Shown here piece by piece: positions 32,130 through 62,697 of a stretch of 64,000 nt of DNA. A model generated the notes under the pieces. That model had not been told where the DNA came from and did no database searches. It was given only the letters and a program-made list of their open reading frames with translations. Source of the stretch: an uncultured Gammaproteobacteria bacterium (GTDB lineage: Bacteria > Patescibacteriota > Microgenomatia > Levybacterales > UBA12049). Both the position numbers and the translations under genes were made by a program. Each line of letters begins with the position of its first letter. Position 1 is the first letter of the stretch. The DNA lies in contig CAZDOJ010000001.1 of assembly GCA_964507055.1 (NCBI GenBank), forward strand, positions 13,210 through 77,209. Direction: 5' to 3'.

Positions 32130-32170
32130 AACTTATAGCAAGGAAAGCATGAGTTTGATATACTTTCACT

Positions 32171-36297: not shown

Positions 36298-36347
36298 ACT
36301 ATCCCGTAGTAGCCAATTGAATTCAGATTTGTTACAATACACCGATT

Positions 36348-37661: not shown

Positions 37662-37666
37662 TATAA

Positions 37667-38845: not shown

Positions 38846-38846
38846 T

Positions 38847-39899: not shown

Positions 39900-39960
39900 T
39901 GGCCTATAATAGTTTTATTTTTAATCATTTCATGGTATAATCCCAAAAGACAAGCCATCC

Positions 39961-41019: not shown

Positions 41020-41054
41020 TTGCTTTTTGTGCCCAATTTGTTACAATACCGCCT

Positions 41055-42089: not shown

Positions 42090-42116
42090 TCAAAATGAAT
42101 TTGGTATAATCCCCAC

Positions 42117-43289: not shown

Positions 43290-43319
43290 TTATTATTTAA
43301 AAAGAATATAATCCCGTCA

Positions 43320-44513
43320 ATGACTGAACGATCTGCAAAATCACCTGCTCAGGTGGAAGGGGCCGTGGCTCCAGATGGCAAGAAAAAACCTGTTTCCCTT
43401 TTCTTTGTTTCGCATCATCCTGCACAAGGATACCAGCTCGACGGATGGAGAAGAAAGATAGAAGATATCCTTGATTCTACTCCAAAAGGAAAAGTTGTAG
43501 TTTTTACAGAGAATGCTGGGCAAAGCCATAGGCATTCCAATCTTACTCGACAAAATGTTGCTAATGGTGATCTACCATCAGATGCCGTTGAAAAAAGTTT
43601 CCGAGAACTAAATGATCATTATCGAAGTCATGGGGTTGAATGGGCCTTGAGTGATGAGAGAGTAGCAGAACTTCTTGAGAAAGGAACAAAAACATTTACT
43701 GGCATATCGACAGCTATACTTGATGATATTGCTGCTCGTTATCCTGGAAGAATAGATCTCGTTGAGGAATGGGAAAGTCGCAAAGGACATCAACTTGAAC
43801 ATGATCTCTACAAAAAGGATACTCCTCAGCGAAATACAACCCTAAGTGCTGTTATGTCTTTATTTCCTCAAGGACGTAGAATTTTGGCTGCTGAGGGTCG
43901 AGAAAAATTGGCATCCGAAGCTGCAATATACCGTGAACGTGAGGAAACATCTGCACGAATTATTAGTGATGCATTAGAACAACCCGATACTATTGCGGCG
44001 GTTGGCTGGATGGGTGCAATACATACTGGACTGAGCCATGAGCTCACTCGAGAGGGTCATCCAGTAATGCGTGTATTTCCAGAGCGAGTAGATGGAGAGC
44101 CATATCTTTTTCCGCCAGGACATACGCTCCTTCGTGCCAAGCGTTTTGATCCGGATAAAGAATTAACTGATGATGAGATCGTAACGGCTGAGCAGGCTGA
44201 TCTGAAGGGAATGCATAAACAATTTGGTGATCCACGGATCAATCCAATTGGTTTTTTTATGCGGTATAAGTCTCAAAAAGAAGAAGTACGCTCAGGAAAA
44301 GCACAGGCTTCTATTCGATATGCTCAAGAATGGTATAGACGAAAAATGGGCAAACAGGCATCAAATGAAGAGCAAGTAAGTACAAATAGACAACTTCAAG
44401 AATCAGTTACGGTTGCCCCAGATATAGCAGAGCCCCCACTTGGCGATCTGAATTCCGATATAGATTGGGGAGAGTCTGGACCCGATGCAAATGGACCAAA
44501 ACGGTCACTCTAA
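43320..44513 (+). CDS. Tag-bearing island protein 14 (family A).
   Basis: It ends 'SDIDWGESGPDANGPKRSL'. It has 'KKKPVSLFFVSHH', 'GKVVVFTENA' and 'AVGWMGAIHTGLSHELTREGH'. Confidence 0.65.
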   Translation: MTERSAKSPAQVEGAVAPDGKKKPVSLFFVSHHPAQGYQLDGWRRKIEDILDSTPKGKVVVFTENAGQSHRHSNLTRQNVANGDLPSDAVEKSFRELNDHYRSHGVEWALSDERVAELLEKGTKTFTGISTAILDDIAARYPGRIDLVEEWESRKGHQLEHDLYKKDTPQRNTTLSAVMSLFPQGRRILAAEGREKLASEAAIYREREETSARIISDALEQPDTIAAVGWMGAIHTGLSHELTREGHPVMRVFPERVDGEPYLFPPGHTLLRAKRFDPDKELTDDEIVTAEQADLKGMHKQFGDPRINPIGFFMRYKSQKEEVRSGKAQASIRYAQEWYRRKMGKQASNEEQVSTNRQLQESVTVAPDIAEPPLGDLNSDIDWGESGPDANGPKRSL

Positions 44514-44556
44514 GCCTGTAATAGTTAAATAGTATATTTTTTGTTATAATCCTTCG

Positions 44557-46401: not shown

Positions 46402-46442
46402 TTTATCTTTCCGCCTCATCCTATGGTATAATCTTGCCCAAT

Positions 46443-48695
46443 ATGATTGAACGGAGACCTCAAATGAAATCGGCAGTCTTTACCGGAGATGTTGATGGCA
46501 TTGATCCTTATGGTACATTGGCAGAATATGTAAAAGTTATTGATACTGTGGCTGCGATTCGCACTCCAGAAGATCGTATTCAGGCAAGACATGTATTACG
46601 TCGGATGATTATTGGATTTCCTCCTCACATTTCTCCCGCAGCTTTCATTAAAAATGAACATGCAGAGCTTGCTCTTACAGATGAAGAGCGAAGGATACAA
46701 GAACAAGATACAATTGATAGAAAAGCCAAACAAGAAGCAATTGATGCAGATATTGCTTCAGGTACATATCCTTGGCAAGCACATGCACGGCATAATGAAG
46801 AAAGCAGAGTCAATACACATCTCATTGGGTTTTACGGAGATGAAGCTTTACAACCACTCTATGGACCTCCTTATTTTGAATCAACTCACGGACAAAAAGA
46901 AGTCCATTTAATACATTTGGATATCAAGCCAGTTGAGGGAGAAGTGCGAAAGAGTGCACATTGGGATGCGTTACCAGAAGATCTTCGAGAACAGTTTGAG
47001 GGAGGATCAATCCCAATCACCGGAACGACTGACCTTTATGCATTAACAGATGAGGAATTAGACAACCTTGCAGTGTCCGAAGATCCATTCAAAATGCAAA
47101 AGCATATAAAAAAGAAACTTGCTCAAGCGGATGATGGATATTATGTTTTGTATTATAGTGATTTCCGCAATCCAGGAGGGAGAACTGGTGTCCTCATGCA
47201 ATCAAGGGATGGAGATATGCAACCTGTGACCACGAAAATTGGTGATGATGAATTTCTCATTGAAGCCAAATCGATAGGGACAAAATATGGTGGATTTGGA
47301 GGAAAGCATCGTCGTCAAAGTGGAAATGATGTCATTACGGGTGGGGGGACTGCTAGAGAATCCGTACGTGAAATTGAGCGCTTGGAAGAGACTGAATTTC
47401 ATGATGGTCCTCAACCAGTTGGTGCTATAACATTTCGCAACGAGGAAGGTGAAGATCAAGGTGTACTGCTTCGACTTACACCGTCAACTGTTCGTGCTGC
47501 TTTTACTATGCCAGATGCATATCCGAAAATTGATTCCCCTGATATTGCAAAGCGGGTTTTCGATATGTATACACAATTATTGGCTGATCAAACGCTTGGA
47601 GAAAATCCTTATATTATAGGTGCTCAATCTTCACATACGGAAAATATCCTCATTTGGAAAGATACGTATGGCTATACAGACTCAGCAGATAAAGCAGCTT
47701 TTCATGATGGTTCAGTGGTGAGTTATGAGAAGGACTTCAAGTTGCGTACGCCTAAAGAGTTTCTCATAGAATACATTGGGCTCGTAGGATATATTCCTGG
47801 AAGGAGCAAGGTAGAAAAACAATACTTTATTGATGGGCTTACTCGAGCTTTTGCCTCTCATGGCAAAAATATTGACCTCCATCCTGAAGATTATGATTTT
47901 GAGATTGCCGAAAAGCTTTGGGCAGAAGGGGGAATTGCATATTCTGTATTTAAGGCTAGAAGAGAACGAGGATTTGTGGCAGATGGAGTACTTAAAGATT
48001 TTACTGATTATGCTGCAAAGGTGAGAGATATATTTGGCGAAAAAGCAATGGGTTCTGAAGAATCATTTAAGCAGAGGATGGAAGATATGGTTGCAACTGT
48101 GAAGAAACAGCTTCTTGAGAAAAGAAATAAAACCAGTGACATTGACGCCCAAAGAGAAATCAATAGTATATTAGCAGAACTCGGAGGAAATAATTTTTTG
48201 AATGGAAGTAATGGATATGATCTCATTTCGAATACGTTTTCACAAAATCATGGAGAAACACAGGAAGATAATGAGCTTATTCAAAACGCTGAAGATATTA
48301 AGACGATACAACAGCTATTTTTCATACATGAATTATATTTCGATCATGAAAGTGATGTAGTATCTGGTGCGTTGAAAAGTTGCCCTGAAGAAGAACGTGA
48401 AAATGTTGAAGATGCAAAAGCGGAGGTTGGTCGAAAACTAGATGAAGCATTTATACTTCGCACGCCAGAAGGACTTTATCGAGCTCTAACAGATGCGGAA
48501 TATGTGCGAGAGTTGATAACAATGGAGGTATATTCACAAGGCTCAGAATTATCTACAGATATTGAAGCTCATCCCGAACAAGTGATCTTCGATCCACGAC
48601 AATATGGATCATCGACTGAGTTTTTTTTAGCTGATGCCCAGATAGACTGGGCTGGAATAGAAGATCCTGATCCTGGATCACAACGAACGCTTTAG
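46443..48695 (+). CDS. Tag-bearing island protein 16 (753-aa hypothetical).
   Basis: It ends 'AQIDWAGIEDPDPGSQRTL'. The ORF track starts at an upstream TTG, so the ATG at 46443 was chosen, 10 nt after 'TGGTATAAT'. Confidence 0.6.
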   Translation: MIERRPQMKSAVFTGDVDGIDPYGTLAEYVKVIDTVAAIRTPEDRIQARHVLRRMIIGFPPHISPAAFIKNEHAELALTDEERRIQEQDTIDRKAKQEAIDADIASGTYPWQAHARHNEESRVNTHLIGFYGDEALQPLYGPPYFESTHGQKEVHLIHLDIKPVEGEVRKSAHWDALPEDLREQFEGGSIPITGTTDLYALTDEELDNLAVSEDPFKMQKHIKKKLAQADDGYYVLYYSDFRNPGGRTGVLMQSRDGDMQPVTTKIGDDEFLIEAKSIGTKYGGFGGKHRRQSGNDVITGGGTARESVREIERLEETEFHDGPQPVGAITFRNEEGEDQGVLLRLTPSTVRAAFTMPDAYPKIDSPDIAKRVFDMYTQLLADQTLGENPYIIGAQSSHTENILIWKDTYGYTDSADKAAFHDGSVVSYEKDFKLRTPKEFLIEYIGLVGYIPGRSKVEKQYFIDGLTRAFASHGKNIDLHPEDYDFEIAEKLWAEGGIAYSVFKARRERGFVADGVLKDFTDYAAKVRDIFGEKAMGSEESFKQRMEDMVATVKKQLLEKRNKTSDIDAQREINSILAELGGNNFLNGSNGYDLISNTFSQNHGETQEDNELIQNAEDIKTIQQLFFIHELYFDHESDVVSGALKSCPEEERENVEDAKAEVGRKLDEAFILRTPEGLYRALTDAEYVRELITMEVYSQGSELSTDIEAHPEQVIFDPRQYGSSTEFFLADAQIDWAGIEDPDPGSQRTL

Positions 48696-48707
48696 AAATG
48701 TCAGGTT
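48691..48707 (+). repeat. Conserved intergenic element 'TTTAGAAATGTCAGGTT' that overlaps the stop codon.
   Basis: It recurs nearly identically at 50764-50780, and a related 'CTAGAATGTCAGGTAG' lies at about 28974-28989. It always sits directly after a tag-encoding 3' end and about 30 nt before the next -10 box. Confidence 0.5.
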
Positions 48708-48722
48708 TGTTGAGCTAAATTT

Positions 48723-48731
48723 TGCTATAAT
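48723..48731 (+). promoter_or_regulatory. Extended -10 'TGCTATAAT', 6 nt upstream of the ATG at 48738 (leaderless arrangement).
   Basis: It is representative of the island's promoters. The same arrangement occurs at 42102-42110, 44542-44550, 50796-50804 and 53562-53570 (TGnTATAAT-N6-ATG). Coordinates are approximate to +/-1 nt. Confidence 0.5.
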
Positions 48732-48737
48732 CCCCGA

Positions 48738-50768
48738 ATGAAAGAACTACTCAGAGCGAGAAAATCATTTTTGAGAGGAGAACCCCTCCGTCATAATCCT
48801 GGTGATGATGATCGGACCCAGGATAAATTTGCTAACGTACCACATGGTGGTCCCCAAAAAGAAGGAAGATTACCAGGAGAAAGAATTAGTGATCAACAGC
48901 GTGATGAGGTGCTATCCGGAGTTCTCAATAGTGAAGTAAAGATGCTCGTTTTGGCGGGAATGGTTCTGGACCCTGAAGTATACACTGCTGGAGATCTCGA
49001 TAGTATGATACGGGATATGCAACGTGGACAAAAAGGTTGGAATTTAAGTAGCAACATAGCATTCGGGTACTGTCTCAATTCTTTCGATGGGATTGGACTA
49101 GTCGCAAAAAGTGAACCTGTAAACGATCGGACGACCTTGGGATTTAAAGCAACACAAAGAGGCAAAGACACGTTACCAGTTATTGGACATCTCTTGGATT
49201 TCTCACTGAAACATCCAGATATAGCTTTGCGGCGTGTCTTTTCAACAACTGCTTCTCCTTCAAAGGCCACGGCTGAAGGCGAACAAGCTGGAGACTATAA
49301 AGTCCGTGCTCCCAAAAGACGATTTCGTATTCTTAAAGCACTCGTCGAGAACGAGGGGCCACTACGTGAGTCAGATATGCGAAAGCTTGTAAATAATTCA
49401 TCTGTTGAGTTGCATCTGGAAAGCCTTCATAACATTGGGCTTATAACTTATGAGAACACAAGAGTTGGTGCAGATCATATCACCTATACAGTTATTCCAG
49501 ATGCTATCTCTGATGTTCATGCTCTGCCTTCTATTCCAACGTCAACCGATAACCAGCTGCAATTACGTGCAGCATATATTACCTCAAAACTTTCGGGTGA
49601 AATTTCTCCAAAAGATGTATATGAACGATTAGTCGCTTTATTCCCACAATATAAAGAACGGGATCCTCGTGGTACAGAAAAGGTAATAAATAGAAAGCTC
49701 CATCACATGTCAATGCATGGATTTATAGAAAAAGGGAAACGCACAATAGACCGAAAAACAGATATCTCAGTAACTGAAGAACAGCGAGAAACTATAGCTG
49801 AGATCGTGGGAATTATTGATGCATTTCAGGCAGGAGATCCGACATTCTTAGCAGAAGGAGAACAGAAAGCTCGACGAATTATCCAAAATCCTGAGGCAGC
49901 AGCTACTCTTATGCGTAAGGCTCAGGAAAGTTCGCATACAGCTCTTGCTCTTGGTCAAGCAGAATTGAAGAGAAGATTAGTGACTTTTGCTGAACAAAGC
50001 GAAGGTCCGATAACAAGTGTGCTTGCTGCTGAATATCTGGAGCATCGTGTGGGTAAAAGTTATGCTGGTGCGATATTACGAGAACTTGCAAGAGAAGGAA
50101 AGATACAGGTTGAATCACGGGGTCAAGTTATAAGATATGGTCCTGTCGCTCCGCAGGAACAAGAGATCCCTTTGCCTGAAGATAAGCGAGGTTTAGAACA
50201 AGTTGCAGTTACGGTAAATGCGGAGATTAAGCCATTTGCTGATGGTATCAAGTTGCTTCTTGCTGCATATGCTTCACATACCGATCCTCAGTCAGAATCA
50301 GCTCTTGAAGTAATGGATCAAATTCGTTCTGTACGAGCACTGCCTGAATATGCACATCTCATTTCGAAACGTGATCAGATAGAACAACGGCTTGCTGTTA
50401 TTGCATCAGAAGAGGCTGGTATCGAGTTAGCGAATGAAGAACCCGTTGTAGAAACAGAAGTTGAGATGCAAGAAAATACGGAGGTTGTTCTGAAACCCCA
50501 AAATAGTCCAAAATCGAAGACAGTTGAGCTTCGTGAGCGAATTCAAGCCTTTAAGGATTTAGGAGTATCTGATTCTAGCGAAATTGCACAATGGATGGGT
50601 GTAAGTAGATCTACCATCACAAGACATATTCGGCAGATGCAAGCACAAGAAACACAAGAAGAACCCATACTTCCTGCAGTTGAAGATCAGCCATTAAGTG
50701 CATTAGATGCTGGGATTGATTGGAGTGGAGATGATGATCCTGATCCCGGTTTACAAAGAACACTTTAG
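48738..50768 (+). CDS. Tag-bearing island protein 17 (family C). It is a DNA-binding-like protein with a winged-helix-like segment and a C-terminal HTH.
   Basis: It ends 'AGIDWSGDDDPDPGLQRTL'. The N-terminal roughly 130 aa are paralogous to protein 18 ('...VLNSEVKMLVLAGMVLDPEVYTAGDL...GYCLNSFDGIGLVAKSE'). It has 'RRFRILKALVENEGPLRESDMRKLV' and the HTH 'SEIAQWMGVSRSTITRHIRQM'. Confidence 0.65.
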   Translation: MKELLRARKSFLRGEPLRHNPGDDDRTQDKFANVPHGGPQKEGRLPGERISDQQRDEVLSGVLNSEVKMLVLAGMVLDPEVYTAGDLDSMIRDMQRGQKGWNLSSNIAFGYCLNSFDGIGLVAKSEPVNDRTTLGFKATQRGKDTLPVIGHLLDFSLKHPDIALRRVFSTTASPSKATAEGEQAGDYKVRAPKRRFRILKALVENEGPLRESDMRKLVNNSSVELHLESLHNIGLITYENTRVGADHITYTVIPDAISDVHALPSIPTSTDNQLQLRAAYITSKLSGEISPKDVYERLVALFPQYKERDPRGTEKVINRKLHHMSMHGFIEKGKRTIDRKTDISVTEEQRETIAEIVGIIDAFQAGDPTFLAEGEQKARRIIQNPEAAATLMRKAQESSHTALALGQAELKRRLVTFAEQSEGPITSVLAAEYLEHRVGKSYAGAILRELAREGKIQVESRGQVIRYGPVAPQEQEIPLPEDKRGLEQVAVTVNAEIKPFADGIKLLLAAYASHTDPQSESALEVMDQIRSVRALPEYAHLISKRDQIEQRLAVIASEEAGIELANEEPVVETEVEMQENTEVVLKPQNSPKSKTVELRERIQAFKDLGVSDSSEIAQWMGVSRSTITRHIRQMQAQETQEEPILPAVEDQPLSALDAGIDWSGDDDPDPGLQRTL

Positions 50769-50810
50769 AAATGTCAGGTTCACTACAATGAAGTTTGTTA
50801 TAATCCCCAA

Positions 50811-53528
50811 ATGAAAGAACGATTTCGAGAAAGACGTATACAAAGGGAGGTTTTACGACATCATCCTGATCCGGGCGAACAGGATAAATTTTCGCAAGGT
50901 GGAGCACATCCTGAAGTTCCTGGTGAACGGAGAGAAAGAGTATCGACACAGAAGATTGATGAACTCCTGGCAGGAGTGTTTAATAATGAATCCAAGATGA
51001 TTGTCCTTGGTGGGATGATCCTCAATCCTCACTGGTATTCAGATCAGCAGCTTCATGATATGACAATGCGGATGCAACGAGGAGAGCGAGGATGGGGCAT
51101 TGGAAATCACATTCCCTTTGGTTACTGTCAGGATTCTTTTGATGATATCGGACTTGTTGCAAAAAATGAAATCGATGGGGCTCGCGATAGTTTAAAATAT
51201 CATGTGACCCAAGATGGTATTAGTGCACTTCCTGCTATTGGTCATCTACTTTCGTTTGTTGAAGAATCAGGCATCTCTTTGCATAGAACTTTCTCAACAA
51301 CGAGTACTCCTTCTTCAGCAGCGAGTATTGATTCTGAGGAAGAACATAATGATGATCGTGACATACGAAAACGTGCACCAAAGACAAGGTATAGAATTTT
51401 TAAACAATTACTTGCTCATGAAGGACCAATACAAAAAGTTGATTTACAAGAAAATCTCAACGTGAATGGGAGTTCTCTCGGGCACCATTTAAGAAACCTC
51501 AGTATTGAAGGTATGCTTGACTATCAAAGCTATTATGATGGTGAACCACTCGCTGTTACATATCGCATCAATGCAGATGCTTTTCAAAAGATAAACTATG
51601 ATGATCTTCCACGAGATGCAAGATCAACGATTACAACGATTACGAGACGAGTTGCTTTTATTGCTGCTCATATGGAAGGGACTGTTACTCCTGCTAAAGT
51701 GCATGAAAAATTGCTTGCTCTGTATCCTCAATATGCAGAGAGAACTGAGGGTCATGTTCGAAGCAGCGTGAATCGTGCCTTAACGCATCTTGCAAAACAT
51801 GAGTATCTACAGCGAGGAGAGATCTCTGCAGATCGTCCTTCATTAATCTCTTTAACTGATGAGCAGCGAGAAAGAATGCAACAACTTGTAACGATCATCG
51901 ATACATTCCAATCAGGTGATCCCGAATTCTTAGCACAAGGTGAGCAAAAAGCCCGCGAAATTTTAAATGATCCTCAAAGAGTAGCACGATTAATGAGACA
52001 CGCACAAGAAAATTCTAGAATAGCATTAGCTTTGGGGCCTGCGGAGTTAAAACAGATGATCATCGAAATCATTAAAGATAGTGACACACCATTATCCGGA
52101 GCGAGAATTGTGCCGTTGATGGACCATCGGATTGGACAGCCGTATGCAACAGCTTTATTAAAGCAATTATATGATGGTGGTGAAATAGCCTTGGTAAGTG
52201 AAGGAAGATCAAAATGGTATGGAAAACTTCAAGAAACAGGAGGTGTTGACGCATTACCCGAAGATAGAGATGGGTTAAGATCATCACTGCAACAAGTTAC
52301 TGCTGAATTTCAGCCATACGAAAATGGCCTGGGGCTTTTATTTGCTGCTTTAGACACGCATGATCCAGCGTCAGCAGATGCCCGAGAGGTTTTAAATCAG
52401 ATTGAATATGTCCGCATGGATCCTGAATATCGAAGACTTAAAGGTAGAATCGACACTATACAAGATAGGCTGGAGAGTTTCGCTGATGAAATTGAAGATG
52501 AAGCAGTTGCGGACGAAACTCAGGTTAGAAAAAGAACACCACGCCAAAGTTCGGTCGTCATTCGCCAACGGATAGATGCTTTTAGGGATTTAGGGATTAC
52601 CAATCAAAGCGAAATTGCACGTTGGATGGGCTTCTCTCCTGATAGTTTGAAATATCATTTCCAGTCGATGGACGATACGCTTAATAGAGCAATATCTCCT
52701 GAGCGAATGGCAAAAATTGATATATCCAGAGCATTGCGTGATCAGGATCAATTAACTCCCGCACAAATTGCAGAACGGATGGGTACCACTGAGAGTACAG
52801 CTCGTGCATATCTCGAACTTGCAGATGATGCTGAAAGGCTTGCAAATCAACGCGAAGTAACTTCTCCTTATCAAGATCGCCTTGTTAGAGTCCGCGAAAT
52901 GGAAGAAGAGTGGGGTGACATGATGCAAGTTACACCGATGGTTCATCAAATGGCTGCGGAGTTAGGCCTATCTGTTGCATCGATCCATAATTATCGAAGA
53001 GAACTTTTTGCGACACGTGCTCGAGCAGCAAGAGTACGGGAAGGCCAAATAGAACAGGTCCGAGCGATGACTGAAGAGTTACAGCAGCTTCCTAACCAAG
53101 AACGTGTATTAGTGATTGCTGAAAGACTAGGATTAAATCGATCAACTGTATATCGCTTTCAAGATAAAGCATTTGGAGTTGCAGAGCAAAGAAAAGTAGG
53201 AATTGCTGAGCGACGTGCACGGGTTGCCCAGCGTTCAGAAGAGCTTCGTGCAATGGGAATCCCTATAAAAGAAGCTGCAAAAGTTATTGCTGAAGAAGAA
53301 GGTGTCTCTCCTGGGACGATAATGTTGGACAGAAGAGCTTTATTACAATCACAGCGAGAAGCCACACAAGCAGAAAATCTATCATCTTCTGTAGAAGAAA
53401 CCATTGTTTATGAGGCAGATCATAGCTTGCCTGATCTTTCGTCAGAGCAATCATTAAATACCTTCAATGAAACAATTGACTGGTCTGGTGAAGATGATCC
53501 GGATATTGGACAACACAGGACACTTTAG
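50811..53528 (+). CDS. Tag-bearing island protein 18 (family C). It is a 905-aa protein with five tandem HTH-like repeats.
   Basis: It ends 'ETIDWSGEDDPDIGQHRTL'. The repeated HTHs are 'SEIARWMGFSPDSLKYHFQSM', 'QIAERMGTTESTARAYLELA', 'QMAAELGLSVASIHNYRREL', 'VIAERLGLNRSTVYRFQDKA' and 'KVIAEEEGVSPGTIMLDRRAL'. Confidence 0.65.
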   Translation: MKERFRERRIQREVLRHHPDPGEQDKFSQGGAHPEVPGERRERVSTQKIDELLAGVFNNESKMIVLGGMILNPHWYSDQQLHDMTMRMQRGERGWGIGNHIPFGYCQDSFDDIGLVAKNEIDGARDSLKYHVTQDGISALPAIGHLLSFVEESGISLHRTFSTTSTPSSAASIDSEEEHNDDRDIRKRAPKTRYRIFKQLLAHEGPIQKVDLQENLNVNGSSLGHHLRNLSIEGMLDYQSYYDGEPLAVTYRINADAFQKINYDDLPRDARSTITTITRRVAFIAAHMEGTVTPAKVHEKLLALYPQYAERTEGHVRSSVNRALTHLAKHEYLQRGEISADRPSLISLTDEQRERMQQLVTIIDTFQSGDPEFLAQGEQKAREILNDPQRVARLMRHAQENSRIALALGPAELKQMIIEIIKDSDTPLSGARIVPLMDHRIGQPYATALLKQLYDGGEIALVSEGRSKWYGKLQETGGVDALPEDRDGLRSSLQQVTAEFQPYENGLGLLFAALDTHDPASADAREVLNQIEYVRMDPEYRRLKGRIDTIQDRLESFADEIEDEAVADETQVRKRTPRQSSVVIRQRIDAFRDLGITNQSEIARWMGFSPDSLKYHFQSMDDTLNRAISPERMAKIDISRALRDQDQLTPAQIAERMGTTESTARAYLELADDAERLANQREVTSPYQDRLVRVREMEEEWGDMMQVTPMVHQMAAELGLSVASIHNYRRELFATRARAARVREGQIEQVRAMTEELQQLPNQERVLVIAERLGLNRSTVYRFQDKAFGVAEQRKVGIAERRARVAQRSEELRAMGIPIKEAAKVIAEEEGVSPGTIMLDRRALLQSQREATQAENLSSSVEETIVYEADHSLPDLSSEQSLNTFNETIDWSGEDDPDIGQHRTL

Positions 53529-53576
53529 TAGCAGCCTGTAGTAGAATTTTGAGCCTAAATTTGGTATAATCCGCAA

Positions 53577-56027
53577 ATGGTAGAACAAAGAGGACCAACT
53601 TCAGAAAAAGTTGTGACTGCAAACGGCCGTCAAGAACGTCGTAAGGGCCCGAAAAAGCGTGTAACGATGATCCACCTCATCCATACTGATGCTGCTGCTG
53701 AGGAGCATCTCACCCCATTTGAACAAGGTATTCGTGATGCCGTCCAAAGAAATCCTGAGCTTACTAAAAAAATTGGTGTATTCATGGAAGATACATCTAT
53801 GACAGCTGCTCAAACAGCTTTTATAAATGCTAAGATTTCAGCAGGCTCCCTTCCTTCAGAAGCAATGCTTGACTGGCATGTTAAGGAGTATCAGGAGCGT
53901 GAAAATGGGGCAGAACCATATGCGGAGGATGTTAAGAGACTTGGAGAAGTTCTTTCAACAGGATTTTATGGTAGAGCCAGAGAAATCGCAGATAGAACTT
54001 TTGCTGAATACCCAGGAAAACTTTTTCTTATTTCAGAAGGTCATGCTGAGCACACGCATGTTCATATTGATAAAGGACCACAACCGCAAACGAAACGAAG
54101 GGGGTTTTTCCCGAAACGCAAGGCTGAGGGACCCGCTCCTAAGAGCGAAGAAGAAATGTTGGAGGCAATGAAAGAGAGGATTGTGTCTTTATCATCCAGC
54201 CTTCGAGCTCGTGATACTAAGATAGTCCAAAATATCGACGAGGCACTGGCAAGAGATGACGTTGCTGAAGTGGTTGGATGGGTTGGGGCAGTACATACTC
54301 CCGTAGGGCATGAGTTAAGTAGGAAATATACAGTGAAGCGTATCTTTCCCGATAAGCAAGATGGTGTTTTTTTCTATTCTCCGGGACAACAGCTTACAAG
54401 GAAGGCAACAATGGATCCGGAATATATTCCTACTCATGCAGAAATTACTCAAACCCGTTTGTCTCACCAAGCCGCTCTTTCTGAGCTGAAAGCTGAAGGA
54501 GCAATCCCAGCAACCTATGACCGGCAGGGGCATGATGGTGCTATATCTCAACAAATAATTAGACGTGAATACGATTGGATGAAGAGGCAAAATACCCCTG
54601 AAGCTACTCCCAGGTTGGCAACTGTTGATATAGTGGCTCAAACTCTACGAGATCGGGAACAAGATTATGCGAGGATTAAGGCAGAAGAAGCCCGAGCTGC
54701 ACATCCGGACTATCCGTTTACACTGCGTATACAACCCGATCAACCAGAATGGGCGATTTTGAAAGCTGCAGGGATGTCTGCTGAAAAGATTAATTCAGGT
54801 ACATTTACTCGACAGGAATTACTCGATGCCGGCTTCTTATTCAAAAACACACTGAATTCAGGAGAAAAAGGAATTATAAGTGGAAAGATACCAGATCCAG
54901 AAGATCCAGAAAAAGAAATTGATTTTACAGGACGGAAGTTGTTAACGAGAGCGGAGGTAGAAATGGTATATGCGTATCAGCAACAACATCCTGAAGTTTA
55001 TGGACTACAAGGTCATGATATCGATGAAGTACGAAATGATATGTTGAGTTTCATGCGTGAAGCTGTGCGTACCGATCCCTTTGAATATAATAATGATTTT
55101 CTTCGTAAAGCACTTCCTTATGATCGAGCTCAAATGGGTTGGGAAATGGACTGGGAACAAGATGAGGCAGATCTGATAGAAAAATTCTGGAGAGCTGAAG
55201 AAAAGAAATATGTGCGAAGTGATCAAGATCCAGAAAAAACGAGAGATTCGAAATGGAGAGCCGCTTGGATACGTGTGAGAGAGAATTTTGCTCGAACACA
55301 ACTTGCTGATCTCTATACTTTGAAAGATGAAGGTACTAAAACTGCTTATTTTAACCGTAAAGAGGTGCGTGGTATCACAACAGAAACGAAAAATATGGTA
55401 CGTGGAGGAAGTGTTTTAAACGAGCCTTCGCCTTTTCTTGATAGTGGATTTTTCTTTGGTCGTAATATTGATATAGATCTTTGGATGAAAGAACAGACTG
55501 GTGATACTGAGGGCGTACACAGAAGGCTCAACGTAGTAAATGTCCATCTTATCGGTGCTCATCCAGAATTCCCGGGTTTTAGTGAAATGGGCACTCAAGG
55601 TTGGGATCAGCGATATATGACTCCAGGAGAATATGTACGAGAGCTCTATCCAGAAGATGAGGCAGTTCGTACCGCAGTACAGACTCAAGAAGCCACACTG
55701 GCTGCACAAGTCTTACATATAGATAAAATCATTAAAGAATCACATGTGCGATTACTAGCAGCTGTTAAAAAATGGGATGCGGAACGAGGAATATTAGGTC
55801 TAAAAGAAATTTTCAAGCGACCTGCATCAGAGTATGCTCCTCAGGCTAAAAATATTGTTGAAGGTGAAGACTATGGAGAAGCGTTACGGGTAGATTCCAC
55901 GGAAACAACAGTTGCGTCAGGAATGCCACAATTGAGCTCTGATAACACACCGCTTGCTGAGATTGATTTACAGATTGATTGGGGAGGAGAAGGAGATCCA
56001 GATCTTGGTGCACATAAGTCTCTATAA
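53577..56027 (+). CDS. Tag-bearing island protein 19 (family A with a roughly 450-aa C-terminal extension).
   Basis: It ends 'LQIDWGGEGDPDLGAHKSL'. It has 'KKIGVFMEDT', 'SLPSEAMLDW' and 'VVGWVGAVHTPVGHELSRKY'. A 'TGGTATAAT' box lies 6 nt before 'ATGGTAGAA'. Confidence 0.65.
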   Translation: MVEQRGPTSEKVVTANGRQERRKGPKKRVTMIHLIHTDAAAEEHLTPFEQGIRDAVQRNPELTKKIGVFMEDTSMTAAQTAFINAKISAGSLPSEAMLDWHVKEYQERENGAEPYAEDVKRLGEVLSTGFYGRAREIADRTFAEYPGKLFLISEGHAEHTHVHIDKGPQPQTKRRGFFPKRKAEGPAPKSEEEMLEAMKERIVSLSSSLRARDTKIVQNIDEALARDDVAEVVGWVGAVHTPVGHELSRKYTVKRIFPDKQDGVFFYSPGQQLTRKATMDPEYIPTHAEITQTRLSHQAALSELKAEGAIPATYDRQGHDGAISQQIIRREYDWMKRQNTPEATPRLATVDIVAQTLRDREQDYARIKAEEARAAHPDYPFTLRIQPDQPEWAILKAAGMSAEKINSGTFTRQELLDAGFLFKNTLNSGEKGIISGKIPDPEDPEKEIDFTGRKLLTRAEVEMVYAYQQQHPEVYGLQGHDIDEVRNDMLSFMREAVRTDPFEYNNDFLRKALPYDRAQMGWEMDWEQDEADLIEKFWRAEEKKYVRSDQDPEKTRDSKWRAAWIRVRENFARTQLADLYTLKDEGTKTAYFNRKEVRGITTETKNMVRGGSVLNEPSPFLDSGFFFGRNIDIDLWMKEQTGDTEGVHRRLNVVNVHLIGAHPEFPGFSEMGTQGWDQRYMTPGEYVRELYPEDEAVRTAVQTQEATLAAQVLHIDKIIKESHVRLLAAVKKWDAERGILGLKEIFKRPASEYAPQAKNIVEGEDYGEALRVDSTETTVASGMPQLSSDNTPLAEIDLQIDWGGEGDPDLGAHKSL

Positions 56028-56078
56028 CTTGAATATAAGGCTAAATTCAACTATAATACCCCGATACATTAGATAACT

Positions 56079-57275
56079 ATGACTGAGACACGAAAACCAA
56101 GAGAACCCTTCAAATTGAGTAAGCCAGTGAACCCAGCATACAGAGCAGCTTCAAAAAGATGGTCAGACCATCCAACGGCTGTAGACTTCACCAATTATGC
56201 TGACTACCACTGGGTTGAGAAATTTAATGAACATTCCAGAGCTGGAAATAAAATTGCAGCATTAGGATGGTTGCTGGCAGGACAAACCCGAAAGTCATTT
56301 ATGACCCGATATGATATCGTAGGTCGAAATGAAGTTGCTCCTCGGATGAGTGATGCTCAAAAGCAGACAATCAGTCGTTTTGAAACAGTCCAAAAAGTAA
56401 CAAATATCATAAAACGTGCACTTGAAGATAGTGAGACAAAAAAGCGTAGACCAAAGGAGCCACTTAGACATAGAATTGCTCGGTATAAGGATGTTTTTGA
56501 TTCAGCGAGAGCAAAAAGAAGAGAGAGAATCGATAATGGAGGAGGACTTTTTAATACGGCATTTTCTACATTTGTTCCAGATAAAGGAATTGAAAATGCA
56601 TATAAGAGTAAAGTAGCACGGCAATATGGACCATCTGATGAGGAGTCTGCTCAACAAGGGGTGGCTGAAAAAGAACCTAAAAACACTTTTGATATAGGTC
56701 ACGGATTGACCGTAGACTTTGATCAAGCTCGAGATGCTGGACTTGATGCCGTAGAAGGTAGATTGGGGCCGATAACTGGAAATGAGACTAACCAGGAACT
56801 AAATGCTCGAAAAGCAATCGCTGCAGAAGCAAGAAAAAAGGATATTCAAGGCCAATTAGATAAACAGCGTGCAGATTTTGATGCTGGACGTGAAAGTCAG
56901 GGGCTTGATCCAGTAGATCATGCAGGAGAACCAGATGCTGATGCTGCAATAGCAAAATACCTCGAAGCAAAAAAGACAACGTCGGAGACTCCGCAAGCTT
57001 CTGTACCGGATATGAAGGGTGTAAAAATAACAATGCCAGGATTTCTCAAAAGAGATCCTGATCGAAATAAAACCTTTGAGGAACGTACACTTGCAGAAGT
57101 TGCTAAACGTGTTGCAGAAGCCGAAGCTGCGAAACAGGCTTCAGTTTCCCAAAATCGAAATGGTATGCCTGAGTTATCAGATGATCAAAATGTGCCGCTA
57201 TCGACTCTGGATGAAAGTGTACAATGGGATGGCTCTGACAGTCCACGTGGGGTCGATGGGCCAAAGATGCGATAA
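56079..57275 (+). CDS. Island protein 20 with a degenerate tag. It is a basic, Lys/Arg-rich hypothetical protein.
   Basis: It ends 'ESVQWDGSDSPRGVDGPKMR'. It is the last plus-strand gene of the array and is convergent with the minus-strand operon, with a 4-nt gap. Confidence 0.55.
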   Translation: MTETRKPREPFKLSKPVNPAYRAASKRWSDHPTAVDFTNYADYHWVEKFNEHSRAGNKIAALGWLLAGQTRKSFMTRYDIVGRNEVAPRMSDAQKQTISRFETVQKVTNIIKRALEDSETKKRRPKEPLRHRIARYKDVFDSARAKRRERIDNGGGLFNTAFSTFVPDKGIENAYKSKVARQYGPSDEESAQQGVAEKEPKNTFDIGHGLTVDFDQARDAGLDAVEGRLGPITGNETNQELNARKAIAAEARKKDIQGQLDKQRADFDAGRESQGLDPVDHAGEPDADAAIAKYLEAKKTTSETPQASVPDMKGVKITMPGFLKRDPDRNKTFEERTLAEVAKRVAEAEAAKQASVSQNRNGMPELSDDQNVPLSTLDESVQWDGSDSPRGVDGPKMR

Positions 57276-58798: not shown

Positions 58799-61700
58799 CT
58801 ACTTACCTAACTTTGGTGGCCCATCGTCTTTGCCTTTTTCATTTTTCTTTTCCATTTCATTGTAAAGTTCAACTTCTTGCTCCATAGTAAGTGGTGCATC
58901 TAATTCAGGACGAGGTTTTGGTTCAATTGCTGTTGTTTGTCCTCCAAGTACTTGTTTATCCGTTGGTGTGATATTTTGCGTTGGCTTAACTGTCTCTCCT
59001 TCAATAACAAATGAATCAGGTCTTCTTGCTAGTTCTCCACGTGGTTTTGGTCCAAGTCTTGGCCGTAGTGCTTCTATCTGTTTTGCAGTGACCAACTCAA
59101 CAAAGATTGGTCTACCATTTTTAAGTGCTACAATTCCTGTAAAGTCAGGCAATCTTGTAATATCTTCAGGTCTGACGATTGGTTCCCGTACGTCCTCATC
59201 AGTTTTTGTTGTTACAGTGATTTCTGGAATTCTTTGGCTTGGGTTCGTCGTCCTACTTATCTCTCCGCCTTTTCCTCGAGTAGTCGTTGTGCTGCGAGGC
59301 GTTCTATGTGCTGGAGTTGTTGCTTTACTTTCTTTTGTTACGGTACGAGTATGTTGTCCGAAATATGCACTAAATTCGTCAACAGTGGCTTTGTCATCAA
59401 GATTTGGGAGGAGTAATCTACCACCATGACTGTTACTTCTTACTGTAACATATCCATCTTGGGTCCAAATTCTTCGAGCCTGTCCACCATCTTGTATTGC
59501 CCCGAGATATTGCTGCCATCTCTTTCGAGAAAGTGCTAAGAATTGATCGTAGTTACGAATTGGTGCAATATGAGGCAATTCGTCCAGAGCTCCAAGCATT
59601 CGTGGTCCCATAGGTAATCCTTCGACACCGCGTCTTTCTGAATTTTCACCATGTGCTCTAAAATGTGTCATAAGATGTGCAAGGAAGAGCCCTCGGTATC
59701 GTTCTTGATCTGATTCGTGAGCCATCATATAAAGTGATGGACGATTTTCAAAGGTATCATCACTATACATAGTATTGGGATCAATTTCATGTACTTTCGT
59801 TGCATCTTGCACTTTTGGATCTGTCCAAGGTTCAAGTGCTTGGCGTGCCATTGTAATAGCTGATCGTGCGTTTTCTGCACCCGTTCGTAAACCTTCTTTT
59901 AAGTCGAGAAGTGCATTCCATGCCTGGACTGAATCTGATCGGAGTGCCAGACCTTCTCTAATTTTTTCTTGGTCACCGTAAGCTGCACCCTCAGCAATTA
60001 TTCTTCGTGCTTCACCTTCCTGCCATACACAGAATCCAGCAAGTTTTGGTAGGGGACTAAGTTGTCCTTTGATTGTAAAGCGTTGAGCGGCTTCAAGAAC
60101 GTGACCCATATGTCGGGGAGATTCCATATTATATCGTCCGTTGATATACAGTAATGGAGTCATCAACATACGTGCTTGACTATGCCAATAGTCCATATTG
60201 GAGTCGCTATCATTACCTTTGCTTATTCCACTGATAAGTTCGTTTGCAATTTTCATTGACTCAGACCATGTCCGTGTATGTTCAAGTGGATTCCATCGAT
60301 GGGTGCCTTCTCCTGAAGTATCAAGCGGATCCCATCTGTATACATCTCCATGAGAACGAGCCCAACCTTCAGTTTTTTTCCAGATTTCACTTCCAACAGC
60401 TGTTGATATCACCAGACCTCGTCTTGCGAGAATATTTGGAACAATGATTGATTCTGATTTACCTTGTCCTGTTGGTCCAACAACAAGTCCATGTCCACCT
60501 TCTCCTCCAGCAATGAGTCTTCCGCTACTTCGTCCCCAGATGATCCTGTCTCCGAGTTTATCTATGTTTCTGCTTGCGAAATAATCTTGTCTAGACATTT
60601 CTCTTCGTGTAGGCCAACCATATTCTGGATCTCCACGTCGACTTCTGCGACGCATTGCACGTGTATCATCGATCATCTGTTGGACGACAAAATCAACCCC
60701 ATCTCTCATTGCTCTCATAATTTCTGACTGGCTTCTGAATTCTGTTTGTTCAGTTATTCTTGTAGGACCATCGATATCTGGCATTCGTTCAGGGCGGGGA
60801 ATAACTCGTGTTCTTAGATGTTGAGGTTCTCTTCTTGTTGGGTTTGTTGAGGCTTCAGTAACCACTGGCTTTGCGTTGTCAGGGTGAGCTGGTTCTTTAC
60901 CCGTAGCGGGGACCACCAATACACCATTAACAAATTTCAGTTTTTCTGTTTGCTCCTCAACGGGAATATTTGGTGTACCGTCGAGTGGGATCGTACCTCG
61001 AATTTTGTCGGGAGTTAATGTGCTGAGGTCTTCTCCTGCAGGTACAATAATAAGATTCCCTTCATGAACAACAAGTCGTGCATTTGGGATTGAGCGTCGT
61101 TCTGTCCAGTGTACTTCGACTGTCTCAGCTTTTTCTCCACCGGACCAAAGGCGAATAGTTGTGTGCTCATTAACTTTTGTTTCAAAATACGTACCTTCCT
61201 CAGTTGACCTCTTTATTGCATTCTCACTGATTTCTCTCCATTTTTCATTGTAATCCTTCACAACTTGAGTAGCTGGTGCTTCCATCCGTGATCCTACTTT
61301 TTGCAATTCTTTTTGTACATCAGCAGCGAAAAGATCTAGATCTGGAAGTTCCTCTATATTTGGTAAACTAGGATCTTGATTTACTTTTGTTACTGTGCCT
61401 TGTAAGTCTTTCGTGGTGGAATTTTGTGTAAGCCTAATACCAAACTCAAGCGTTTCCCATTCTTTTTGTGTGAGGGGTCCTGATTTTTCTTTTAATCGTT
61501 CGGTTAAACCTGTGAGATCTGTTTCTATATGAGCAAGTATCGTAAATGCTGCATTTTGTCTTTGCACCTGGGTTCTGATTTCCTCTGGAATCGCTTCTAC
61601 CGGAAGATCTGATAATCGTTCAATAAGTTGATAATCAATATATTTAATGAGGACATTTCCCAATACTTTCTTTTCTGTTTCGGTTAGAGATTTTAGATCT

Positions 61701-62551
61701 CGTTGCATTTCATCTTCTGGAAGTGCAATTTCATCAGCAGTAGTTTCTTCAGCACCAGAAGGGTATGAAGGTGGTATCTTTCTATCTTCGACGGGAGCAC
61801 CTTCGGCTGAAACAGTTTGTTTCTGTGTTCCAGTTGTTTGTTCTTCTGAGCCGACTTTTTCAGTAACAGGAGCTTCTGTTGTCGAAATATCTTCTGTGCG
61901 GATTGTAGTTTGCAGGCCTGTATCTATCGTTGCTTGCTGATCTGTATCATCCGTAGATTCTCTACTACTGGAACCTGTTTGATGATCACTTCCTGTAGTA
62001 TCCTGCTCTGTGTCTGAACGATCATTCCCATGTGCATCGTCCTGACTAGATGTATCTTGTCTATCTGTCTGTTGGCTGTCTTCATTCGCTGTTTCTTGTT
62101 GTTCGGTTCTGACCTGATTTCTTTCAGTTTCTATTTGTGGTTGCTGAGGAACTTCATCACGAATAAAGGCTTGTTGTGTAAGAATACCTGCTCGTATATT
62201 AGATATTGGGTCTCGATCTCGTCCTAAGTAATTCTCATTTAAATTGGTCTGTAATTCTCCCGGGTTAGTTTGTGCAATGTCATACAGAGCAGATCCAATT
62301 TGATCAACTGTTTCTATTTCTGGGTTTCCAGTTAGTGTCCGAGCAATGTCTACATATGCAGCTTTAAGTGGAGCTTCTGCTCGTATAATTTGTTCTGCTG
62401 AGGGCCTATCTTTTCCGATAGATTTTGTGGCTTGTCTGCGAATATCTCCCAATACGAAAGAATTAATCCGTGCAATCCCAGCAGTTCTTGGATCAACTGC
62501 TTGATCTTTATGTTCATCTCCTGGTCTGCCAATTGGCCTTTCTGCTGCCAT
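58799..62551 (-). CDS. VirD4/TraG-like type IV coupling protein (T4CP)-family P-loop ATPase. It is atypical: it has no TM helices and carries a 650-aa acidic low-complexity N-terminal extension.
   Basis: The Walker A region is 'GLVVGPTGQGKSESIIVPNIL', compared with the VirD4 pattern 'GPTRSGKGVG.VIPNLL'. The downstream segment is 'GDVYRWDPLD....RWNPLE', compared with the VirD4 pattern 'v.fDP......fNPL'. The Walker-B-like segment is 'MLGALDELPHIAPI', compared with 'LLDEF..LG'. 'RKRWQQYLGAIQ' and the C-terminal 'EDITRLPDFTGIVALKNGRPIFV' are also present. A 'TGTTATAAT' box lies about 30 nt upstream on the minus strand. Confidence 0.7.
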   Translation of the reverse strand: MAAERPIGRPGDEHKDQAVDPRTAGIARINSFVLGDIRRQATKSIGKDRPSAEQIIRAEAPLKAAYVDIARTLTGNPEIETVDQIGSALYDIAQTNPGELQTNLNENYLGRDRDPISNIRAGILTQQAFIRDEVPQQPQIETERNQVRTEQQETANEDSQQTDRQDTSSQDDAHGNDRSDTEQDTTGSDHQTGSSSRESTDDTDQQATIDTGLQTTIRTEDISTTEAPVTEKVGSEEQTTGTQKQTVSAEGAPVEDRKIPPSYPSGAEETTADEIALPEDEMQRDLKSLTETEKKVLGNVLIKYIDYQLIERLSDLPVEAIPEEIRTQVQRQNAAFTILAHIETDLTGLTERLKEKSGPLTQKEWETLEFGIRLTQNSTTKDLQGTVTKVNQDPSLPNIEELPDLDLFAADVQKELQKVGSRMEAPATQVVKDYNEKWREISENAIKRSTEEGTYFETKVNEHTTIRLWSGGEKAETVEVHWTERRSIPNARLVVHEGNLIIVPAGEDLSTLTPDKIRGTIPLDGTPNIPVEEQTEKLKFVNGVLVVPATGKEPAHPDNAKPVVTEASTNPTRREPQHLRTRVIPRPERMPDIDGPTRITEQTEFRSQSEIMRAMRDGVDFVVQQMIDDTRAMRRRSRRGDPEYGWPTRREMSRQDYFASRNIDKLGDRIIWGRSSGRLIAGGEGGHGLVVGPTGQGKSESIIVPNILARRGLVISTAVGSEIWKKTEGWARSHGDVYRWDPLDTSGEGTHRWNPLEHTRTWSESMKIANELISGISKGNDSDSNMDYWHSQARMLMTPLLYINGRYNMESPRHMGHVLEAAQRFTIKGQLSPLPKLAGFCVWQEGEARRIIAEGAAYGDQEKIREGLALRSDSVQAWNALLDLKEGLRTGAENARSAITMARQALEPWTDPKVQDATKVHEIDPNTMYSDDTFENRPSLYMMAHESDQERYRGLFLAHLMTHFRAHGENSERRGVEGLPMGPRMLGALDELPHIAPIRNYDQFLALSRKRWQQYLGAIQDGGQARRIWTQDGYVTVRSNSHGGRLLLPNLDDKATVDEFSAYFGQHTRTVTKESKATTPAHRTPRSTTTTRGKGGEISRTTNPSQRIPEITVTTKTDEDVREPIVRPEDITRLPDFTGIVALKNGRPIFVELVTAKQIEALRPRLGPKPRGELARRPDSFVIEGETVKPTQNITPTDKQVLGGQTTAIEPKPRPELDAPLTMEQEVELYNEMEKKNEKGKDDGPPKLGK

Positions 62552-62697
62552 ATTTTTGGTATATGTGTAAGAAATGATGATTATAACATAGGATATGATT
62601 AATGAAAAGCTTGGTAGATTAATGTGATCAAAAAATCATACAGAAATCATACATCCTGTAGTAGTATTTTTACCAGTTTTTTGATAAAATATCCACC

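Follow-up and report, generated by a model that had tools for sequence, protein, structure and literature searches.

A VirD4-like coupling ATPase with no transmembrane helix and a long N-terminal extension, encoded within an array of C-terminally tagged genes in a Patescibacterial genome

Introduction

Among type IV secretion systems (T4SSs), the one that in function comes nearest to a single type IV coupling protein (T4CP) serving many tagged clients is the VirD4/X-Tfes system of Xanthomonas, in which many effectors per genome carry a common C-terminal domain, XVIPCD, that is recognised by the T4CP. XVIPCD is a folded domain of ~120 aa, and the effectors that bear it are scattered and paired with immunity genes. 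In the Dot/Icm system of Legionella, DotL (IcmO) is the T4CP for hundreds of effectors with C-terminal signals, and its long tail forms an adaptor platform. Substrates of VirB/D4 systems have positively charged C-terminal signals, to which the basic tag ends described below bear a likeness. In their native form Cagβ and TrwB are anchored in the membrane, and their structures were solved with N-terminally truncated constructs (TrwBΔN70). Here we analyse a gene for a VirD4-like T4CP in a 64,000-nucleotide stretch of contig CAZDOJ010000001.1 (positions 13,210 to 77,209), referred to throughout as the window. The predicted protein has a VirD4/TrwB-type core, no transmembrane helix and a soluble N-terminal extension of ~650 aa, and its gene lies among genes whose products share a short C-terminal tag.

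T4CPs lacking a transmembrane domain (TMD) form a named subfamily (PMC7434980), and one T4CP without a TMD, TraJ of pIP501, is thought to be tethered to the membrane by TraI (PMC7434980, PMC12857230). T4SSs are widespread in Patescibacteria, where t4cp usually lies far from virB4, and in the one member of the Saccharibacteria tested the T4SS is essential for epibiotic growth (PMC12102498, PMC12857230). The Patescibacterial T4SS genes are often near oriC, distant from t4cp, and 5,713 'orphan' VirD4 homologues have been counted in 2,918 genomes of the phylum (Quiñonero-Coronel et al. 2025, PMC12102498). The substrates and signals of these T4SSs, and the role of the stand-alone VirD4 homologues, are an open question (PMC12102498, PMC12857230).

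Results

Identity and fold of the ATPase core

A first-pass annotation, made from the DNA sequence alone, had placed the protein in the VirD4 family of T4CPs, and Pfam, NCBIfam, fold comparison and a profile search of the Protein Data Bank (PDB) all bear this out. The C-terminal half matches PF02534 T4SS-DNA_transf (101.8 bits against a cut-off of 20.1, E=5.4e-29, aa 679-1093), PF12696 TraG-D_C (39 bits against 22, E=9e-10) and PF10412 TrwB_AAD_bind (35.2 bits against 20.5, E=9e-9). The top NCBIfam match is NF045973, 'VirD4-like, CD1115 family' of monoderm conjugative elements (E=4.6e-20), with a score of 71.9 that falls below its 250-bit threshold; the VirD4 families NF010424 (43 against 681 bits) and NF010472 (35.5 against 728) and the TraG families NF010453 (34.3 against 586) and NF010450 (26.3 against 674) are further below theirs. 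Judged by these scores, the protein is a distant relative, and not a member, of the curated NCBIfam equivalogs. A monoderm-type origin fits the Patescibacterial T4SS (PMC12102498).

The motifs quoted at first pass were all recovered, namely GPTGQGKS at aa 692, IVPNIL at 703, RWDP at 739, NPL at 754 and LDELPHI at 989. Both ALDELPHI (aa 988-995) and the glutamine motif IQDGGQ (~aa 1019-1024) align to TrwB motifs, and Walker A, Walker B and this downstream glutamine motif are invariant in a three-way alignment with two long relatives described below, P0005 and P0006.

We modelled aa 620-1250 with AlphaFold from a 63-sequence alignment, which gave a mean predicted local distance difference test score (pLDDT) of 86.8 and a predicted template modelling score of 0.79. 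Foldseek searches of the PDB with this model returned Cagβ (E=3e-18) and TrwB (E=3e-14, template modelling score 0.72) over 480-556 columns, with HerA and VirB4 trailing at ~1e-5. A PDB profile search with the T4CP alignment found Cagβ, TrwB and DotL as its sole matches, the last of them weak (E=1.2e-3). The competing assignment to an FtsK/SpoIIIE-type or type VII EssC-type ATPase was considered and rejected: the protein has no FtsK_SpoIIIE Pfam match at E<=1, and neither FtsK nor EssC appears in the top 50 Foldseek matches or in the PDB profile matches. Matches at ~25% identity were also found in 261 plasmid records (236 of these plasmids are conjugative), and those listed are annotated as TraG or as the T4SS conjugative DNA-transfer family. 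Together these data identify aa ~680-1160 as a VirD4/TrwB-type coupling-protein core that is a divergent member of its family.

Absence of a transmembrane helix

The earlier observation that the protein has no hydrophobic transmembrane helix was borne out. No 19-aa Kyte-Doolittle window attains the cut-off of 1.6; the best scores 1.34 and covers aa 702-720, just past Walker A and within the confidently modelled nucleotide-binding domain (NBD). P0005 and P0006 likewise lack transmembrane segments. The possibility that a start-site error had truncated the gene at its 5' end proved unfounded, as an in-frame stop lies 29 codons 5' of the ATG with no other start codon between. The gene is therefore not extendable, and no N-terminal transmembrane segment is masked by the choice of start. 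In addition, the identical protein (P0001) occurs on seven contigs, the longest of 1.32 Mb, and this, together with two homologues of like architecture, rules out mis-assembly or an artefactual fusion.

The absence is unusual for a T4CP, though not without precedent. Because T4CPs lacking a TMD are already a recognised subfamily, the absence alone is not new, and the CD1115-family profile NF045973 has ~30 positions ahead of Walker A. We also examined 91 proteins that matched the Walker A pattern among the best 150 homologues and three hits of a word-indexed search. A transmembrane-like segment before Walker A was absent in 22 of the 91, some of them possibly truncated. The nearest homologues beyond P0005 and P0006 are ~30% identical to the window T4CP, and most have one or two predicted transmembrane helices. 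A gene for a small membrane partner is absent beside the T4CP gene, which is separated from its neighbours by 1 nt and 146 bp; both neighbours encode soluble tagged proteins.

The N-terminal extension

In the window T4CP Walker A lies at residue 692, against a median of 162 in the 91-protein set, and it lies past residue 300 in three of these proteins, which are the window T4CP, P0005 and P0006. The residues in front, which the first-pass annotation described as a disordered acidic extension of 650 aa, are indeed long, hydrophilic and net-acidic (aa 1-650, net charge -37). Disorder and acidity are extreme in ~150 aa only, the rest being predicted to form helices or β-structure. Between aa 131 and 290, which includes the acidic string quoted at first pass (aa 151), D and E make up 24% of residues, Q, N, S and T 39% and hydrophobic residues 17%, for a net charge of -26. 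In contrast, aa 1-130 and 291-650 contain 31-38% hydrophobic residues, comparable to the folded ATPase half. The segment aa 131-290 is the sole convincingly disordered part of the extension. A charge-hydropathy plot also calls parts of the folded ATPase 'disordered' and was used just for aa 126-275, as an outlier.

A single-sequence AlphaFold model of aa 1-660, which is weak evidence at a mean pLDDT of 42.6 and was for that reason kept out of fold searches, contains helices at aa 21-156 (pLDDT 70-81 for ~20-100), no secondary structure at aa 157-278, low-confidence helices at aa 279-450, strands at aa 491-546 and a long helix at aa 608-638. The most amphipathic segment of the whole protein, aa 606-623, is followed by an Arg-rich stretch, and the helix that they form (aa 606-640) occupies the position of the linker between the second transmembrane helix and the NBD of canonical T4CPs. 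It may contact the membrane or a partner.

The extension has no homologue that we could detect. An exhaustive search of 1.84e9 protein representatives aligned only from aa ~620 onward, Pfam, NCBIfam and PDB sequence searches gave no significant match, and BLASTP, phmmer and HHalign found no homology to the extensions of P0005 and P0006 or to the array proteins. Net charge and length of the extension are nonetheless similar across the lineages (-41 over 620 aa in the window, -33 over 658 in P0005 and -35 over 616 in P0006). Since both are kept without sequence homology, selection appears to act on the bulk properties of the extension and not on its sequence.

Two further observations concern this region. 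Repeated phmmer matches to the amphipathic helical repeats of apolipoprotein A-I, non-significant at E~0.2, fall on aa 346-443 (61223-61516) and perhaps hint that the extension binds lipids peripherally. Separately, an 883-aa tagged protein encoded beyond the window (Logan contig L001, 4406-7057) contains a Ser/Thr/Asp/Gly-rich acidic low-complexity region of ~500 aa that resembles aa 131-290 of the T4CP in composition.

The tagged gene array and its counterparts in two related lineages

The T4CP gene lies within an array of at least 27 genes whose products end in a common tag. On one side, 22 consecutive open reading frames (ORFs; 24938-58797) carry this C-terminal tag of ~35 aa, with the consensus P.L...L...IDW.G.DDPD.GP.R[ST]L in a conserved block of ~35-45 aa. 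On the other side there are at least five more, the 527-aa gene at the window's edge being the first; they diverge from the T4CP gene and continue beyond the window on L001. The array genes are 30-50 nt apart, without small partner ORFs between them. No signal peptide was found in the tagged proteins and no Pfam match falls within the tag in the array proteins tested; most of the tagged proteins scanned have no Pfam match at all, and the 505-aa downstream partner of the T4CP has none in Pfam, NCBIfam or PDB sequence searches. A search of 5.8e9 proteins with an alignment of 22 tags gave no match, the tag being too short for a database of that size.

To place the T4CP we relied on the exhaustive phmmer search, which yielded 1686 homologues; among the best 150 of these, which we examined, only P0005 (1349 aa, 36% identity to the window T4CP) and P0006 (1306 aa, 33%) have Walker A past residue 300. 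Word-indexed searches were uninformative whether the query was the full protein or the ATPase domain, and returned only the protein itself and three weak hits. The three-protein alignment found no relative in 185,579 species-representative genomes, one distant T4CP only among metagenome contigs and no match among viral contigs.

The first-pass annotation had asked whether homologues of like architecture accompany tag-bearing arrays, and both do. At the P0005 locus (L003) and the P0006 locus (L004), a co-oriented gene of ~490 aa lies directly downstream of the T4CP gene, with converging genes beyond. L003, in which upstream sequence is present, also has a divergent gene of ~530 aa upstream. The window's divergent gene is 45% identical to its L003 counterpart (L003_8241) over 500 aa; the downstream partners are 26% identical between the window and L003 (L003_14057, E=4e-5) and 45% between L003 and L004. 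Further cross-locus orthologues are a helix-turn-helix (HTH)-rich pair and W_56079.

Each lineage has a tag of its own, with the consensus EP.VG.S...SI..E....KGK[ST]K at L003 (351-21287) and EP.V.R.RTI..RE....GKTK at L004 (4023-11803). The layout is kept: the tag is ~33 aa long, starts with Pro-x-[LV], has [ST]-[IL] some 10 residues on and ends, in all lineages, in a basic stretch with a penultimate Ser or Thr. The bodies of the proteins remain alignable while all tags of a genome have shifted together, which is the pattern expected of one shared receptor. On these sequence comparisons, the array-embedded ATPase is the obvious candidate for that receptor.

The charges of tag and ATPase give a hint, from three lineages, of where reading might occur. 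Mean tag charge goes from -6.5 in the window to -1.5 at L003 and +2.8 at L004, and the net charge of the all-alpha domain follows the opposite trend (+1, -5 and -10, respectively). This would favour the all-alpha domain, the module that usually binds substrates in T4CPs, as tag reader over the acidic extension, which the first-pass annotation had put forward as a possible substrate-docking platform. Simple electrostatic docking by the extension is mildly disfavoured, because its charge stays steady while that of the tag flips.

The C-terminal tail of the ATPase

It had been suggested that the extreme C-terminus of the T4CP, KDDGPPKLGK (aa 1241), resembles the core of the tag. Two collinear tag-like fragments, PRPELDAP and GKDDGPPK, are present in the tail and score at noise level. 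A hidden Markov model (HMM) of the window's 25 tags gave the T4CP 1.0 bit (E=8.4 among 298 ORFs), or -1.4 bits in a second scoring. A position-specific scoring matrix of the last 10 residues, a post hoc test, gave its tail 3.7 bits against a maximum of 2.5 in ~150 control T4CP tails. The resemblance is not significant in the window protein and is weakly supported in the two relatives. The P0006 tail 'PAVGRRRTIYERQEERR' matches the consensus 'PsVtrkRTIteRekgrn' of its own lineage at 8.7 bits, a score found in 0 of 150 controls and 1 of 500 shuffles, and the P0005 tail matches its cognate tag HMM at 6.3 bits (0/150 controls, 2/500 shuffles). Cross pairs of tail and tag between the window and the relatives are at noise level, and the P0005 tail scores 2.7 bits against the L004 tag HMM (5/500 shuffles).

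The opposite end of the protein also recalls the array. All three long T4CPs start in the hydrophilic M-x-E-x-R style of the array proteins, and one of the tagged array proteins of L004 has homology to aa 79-241 of P0005 (E=2e-10). Given these features and the cognate tail matches, the long T4CP looks like a coupling-protein core embedded in an array-type protein. The tag-like tail may gate the protein as a pseudo-substrate, serve as a common address or be left over from its evolution.

Feature map and surroundings

Coordinates of the T4CP gene, its parts and its neighbours are collected in Table 1.

Table 1. Features of the coupling-protein gene and the flanking array (window coordinates)
Feature	Position	Strand	Remarks
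T4CP ORF, VirD4-like, without transmembrane helix	58799..62551	minus	1250 aa plus stop, ATG start
Extended -10-like element TGTTATAAT	62580..62588	minus	28 nt 5' of the T4CP ATG; by eye from sequence
Predicted helical N-terminal module	62084..62494	minus	aa 20-156; single-sequence AlphaFold, low reliability; ordinary composition
Acidic Q/T/S/D/E-rich low-complexity segment	61682..62161	minus	aa 131-290
Second part of extension	60902..61681	minus	aa 291-550; predicted helices and small β region; no homologue detected
Amphipathic Arg-rich helix before NBD	60632..60736	minus	aa 606-640; hydrophobic moment (muH) 0.62, highest in protein
T4CP core (NBD with inserted all-alpha domain)	59072..60517	minus	aa 679-1160; Pfam, model, Foldseek, PDB profile
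Walker A GPTGQGKS	60455..60478	minus	aa 692-699; invariant in three-way alignment
All-alpha domain	59792..60202	minus	aa 784-920; helical insert in model
Walker B region LDELPHI	59567..59587	minus	aa 989-995; aligns to TrwB ...IDELASL
Poorly conserved tail	58802..59056	minus	aa 1166-1250; short helix ~aa 1223-1240; ends ...GKDDGPPKLGK
21 tag-bearing ORFs	24938..57275	plus	20 of 344-997 aa and a 110-aa ORF; presumed ATPase clients
Co-oriented tagged gene, 505 aa	57280..58797	minus	begins 1 nt past the T4CP stop codon
Divergent tagged gene, 527 aa	62698..64000	plus	runs off window end; best-conserved array member

The region upstream of the T4CP gene is the divergent intergenic stretch 62552-62697, in which direct reading revealed no obvious Shine-Dalgarno sequence 5' of the ATG. 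Rfam detected no RNA families in the window.

Several array products are of interest in their own right. Tagged DNA-binding proteins are encoded at 44557-46401 and 50811-53528, and also at 48738-50768; one has sigma-70 regions 2 and 4 (twice) and another several HTH/winged-helix units. These would be unusual cargo if exported, and reprogramming of host transcription is possible. A FAD/pyridine nucleotide-disulphide oxidoreductase (27053-28978, Pfam E=4e-10) carries the most divergent tag (E=7e-7). The 110-aa ORF at 33347-33679, located between array genes, starts with MVESRRR, and its C-terminus, ...NIFDGSNDGQSGPRRSL, is a degenerate version of the tag (tag HMM E=4e-4); this ORF may represent either a remnant or a tagged protein of minimal size. 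An overlap of 62 nt (38784-38845) exists between the ORF called at 38784 and the end of the array gene before it, and the true start of this ORF is probably a downstream ATG.

Array proteins (window 24938-58797 and 62698-64000; L001 1036-9854) and the three long T4CPs share hydrophilic Glu/Arg/Pro-rich starts (MVEQR.., MTER.., MEPRE.., MAAERP..). Residues 2-12 contain on average 1.27 Glu in array-type proteins against 0.38 in housekeeping genes. One possibility is that this common start is a second signal, located at the N-terminus; another is that it reflects a context of translation initiation that these genes share.

At the left boundary of the array, a minus-strand gene (24091-24912) encodes a 273-aa protein with no family match and a single C-terminal hydrophobic helix, reminiscent of a tail anchor; it is the sole membrane-type gene adjoining the array. 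The left third of the window consists of housekeeping genes, among them one for serine hydroxymethyltransferase (SHMT) whose product is 74-79% identical to those of metagenome-assembled genomes (MAGs) of Candidatus Levyibacteriota and 90% identical to that of the 1.61-Mb MAG OZ246394.1. These identities place the source among the Microgenomates-group Patescibacteria, as a Levybacteria-like member. From the species-representative scan alone, this MAG seems to have no close T4CP orthologue. Several MAG records with SHMT 60-90% identical are titled 'uncultured Gammaproteobacteria', probably a placeholder or mislabelled taxonomy. The housekeeping half also contains a Hint/intein-like protein ending in a Gly/Ser run beside a von Willebrand factor A (VWA) protein (12556-13407 and 11594-12544), and a cluster of VWA and SdrD-B/prealbumin-fold surface-type proteins (582-4812).

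Discussion

These data allow us to propose, with a probability of roughly 0.55, that the protein is an ATPase dedicated to recruiting the tagged proteins, which it hands over to a Patescibacterial monoderm-type T4SS encoded elsewhere. The protein itself is best explained as a T4CP that gained a soluble, net-acidic and fast-evolving N-terminal extension. As a dedicated receptor and motor it would serve at least 25 neighbouring proteins with the common tag. Binding of the tag would most plausibly take place through the all-alpha domain, with auxiliary, tethering or regulatory roles for the extension and the C-terminal tail. ATP hydrolysis would drive handover to the channel encoded elsewhere in the genome, with delivery out of the cell or into a host bacterium.

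Several points weigh against this proposal. Genes for VirB4, VirB6, VirB3, VirB8, pilins, a relaxase and a small membrane partner are absent from the 64-kb window, from the extra 8.5 kb and from both related contigs, and no channel gene lies within the ~74 kb of sequence read. In the one genetically tested Patescibacterium, the t4cp homologue is dispensable while the T4SS is essential (PMC12102498). Tag binding by the ATPase is putative, and the charge trend comprises three lineages. The long architecture is extremely rare, although T4SSs are common in the phylum. Moreover, the tails of P0005 and P0006 each weakly reproduce the tag of their lineage, which could make the ATPase a client of another tag receptor.

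More tentatively, the proposal may be taken a step further. A T4CP core built into an effector-type protein, with an N-terminal body like those of the array and a degenerate tag of its own lineage, might form the hub of an undescribed export module, in which the tag on 25 or more clients co-evolves with the ATPase, the tagged proteins, among them those with sigma-70 region 4 and with multiple HTH domains, pass from epibiont to host and the tail serves as a pseudo-substrate gate. If true, the candidate phyla radiation would have its first defined T4SS signal and effector repertoire.

A different use of the same ATPase would be as an exapted, T4SS-independent cytoplasmic motor, a soluble hexamer that would prepare the tagged proteins for some other route or structure by unfolding, sorting or assembling them, and would not dock on a VirB4-type channel. 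The lack of a TMD, the lack of an adjoining membrane partner or channel gene and the large soluble extension in place of the part that normally contacts the channel all point this way. So does the situation in the phylum, where t4cp is mostly far from virB4. Because one t4cp homologue is dispensable while the T4SS is essential, the authors of the Patescibacterial survey raise exaptation themselves, writing that it 'cannot be ruled out' (PMC12102498). However, TMD-less T4CPs such as TraJ of pIP501 function with a T4SS (PMC7434980, PMC12857230), no other export machinery was seen beside the locus, the tagged proteins have no signal peptides, and the basic ends of their C-terminal tags suit T4SS substrates. 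We consider such a motor unlikely.

The likeness of the long T4CPs to array proteins raises the alternative that the ATPase belongs among the tagged proteins, a T4CP core having been inserted into an array-type protein of which an N-terminal body and a tag remnant are left, and that a third partner (a hub, compartment or channel) reads the tag and gathers the ATPase together with the array products. The tails of P0005 and P0006 fit their cognate tag HMMs and not the non-cognate ones, M-x-E-x-R starts are common to T4CPs and array proteins, and part of P0005 is homologous to a tagged protein. Against this, the window tail compared with the whole tag is at noise level, the tag-like pieces are partial and do not sit at the extreme C-terminus, and a degenerate tag might just as well regulate a tag-binding T4CP by acting as its pseudo-substrate, which fits our proposal of a recruiting ATPase. 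This arrangement seems to us less probable still than an exapted motor.

An ordinary conjugative DNA-transfer coupling protein of an integrated mobile element is suggested by the matching Pfam and NCBIfam families, whose names refer to conjugation, and by plasmid TraG/VirD4 proteins as the nearest relatives with an annotation. We reject this as very improbable: relaxase, integrase, VirB4 and replication genes are absent nearby, the locus matches the housekeeping half of the window in GC content, the synteny of the tagged array is kept in three lineages, and viral contigs gave no match. Relaxases are, in addition, rare in Patescibacteria, with 109 in the dataset surveyed (PMC12102498). Finally, an annotation or assembly artefact (an erroneous fusion of two genes, or a decaying pseudogene), to which an N-terminal region of 620 aa without any homologue might point, is effectively refuted by the seven contigs, the two homologues, the intact catalytic motifs and the chance of ~1e-17 that we estimate for a 650-codon open frame at 42% GC (~6% stop codons assumed).

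The locus offers a concrete, testable pairing of one unusual coupling ATPase with more than 25 candidate clients that are encoded contiguously and bear a short C-terminal tag, and the two related lineages with altered tags are natural specificity-swap variants. It thereby brings within reach the question of which proteins the T4SS or T4CP of the candidate phyla radiation moves and by what they are recognised.

Comparison with known systems

Similar to TraJ of pIP501 and to the NF045973 family, the window T4CP combines a VirD4-type NBD and an all-alpha domain with the lack of a TMD. Unlike TraJ, it has no adjacent membrane partner, conjugation operon or relaxase. Relative to NF045973 it scores far under the cut-off, and its extension is absent from the other top-150 homologues bar P0005 and P0006. 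The Patescibacterial orphan VirD4 homologues resemble it in that they belong to the same phylum, are not beside virB4 and have been considered for exaptation; the survey of them reports neither a long-extension architecture without transmembrane helices nor a link to tagged arrays (PMC12102498).

For the X-Tfes analogy, the differences are a tag of ~35 aa in place of a folded XVIPCD, a contiguous array, the absence of small partner ORFs and a T4CP without a TMD. Cagβ (the VirD4 of H. pylori) and TrwB (R388) are the best structural matches of the core, at 13-18% sequence identity, and have no comparable N-terminal extension. The platform of DotL lies at the C-terminus, where DotM, IcmSW and LvgA bind, and the protein has a TMD; no homologues of these adaptors were found at the window locus. 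EssC/EccC of type VII secretion systems share the superfamily and, as ATPases, recognise signals at the C-termini of substrates whose genes are close by, whereas the window T4CP has a single NBD, no FHA domains, no transmembrane helices and no FtsK_SpoIIIE match.

By sequence and fold, then, the window T4CP is a member of the T4CP family and not categorically new, and the absence of a TMD has precedent. What appears to be undescribed in the literature searched is the soluble extension of ~650 aa, the fixed association with an array whose C-terminal tags evolve in concert, and how rare the architecture is: it was found in three proteins among the best 150 of 1686 hits and in none of 185,579 species genomes. 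With it, T4SS biology gains a third T4CP architecture, one that has no TMD and carries a large soluble, acidic and fast-evolving N-terminal module.

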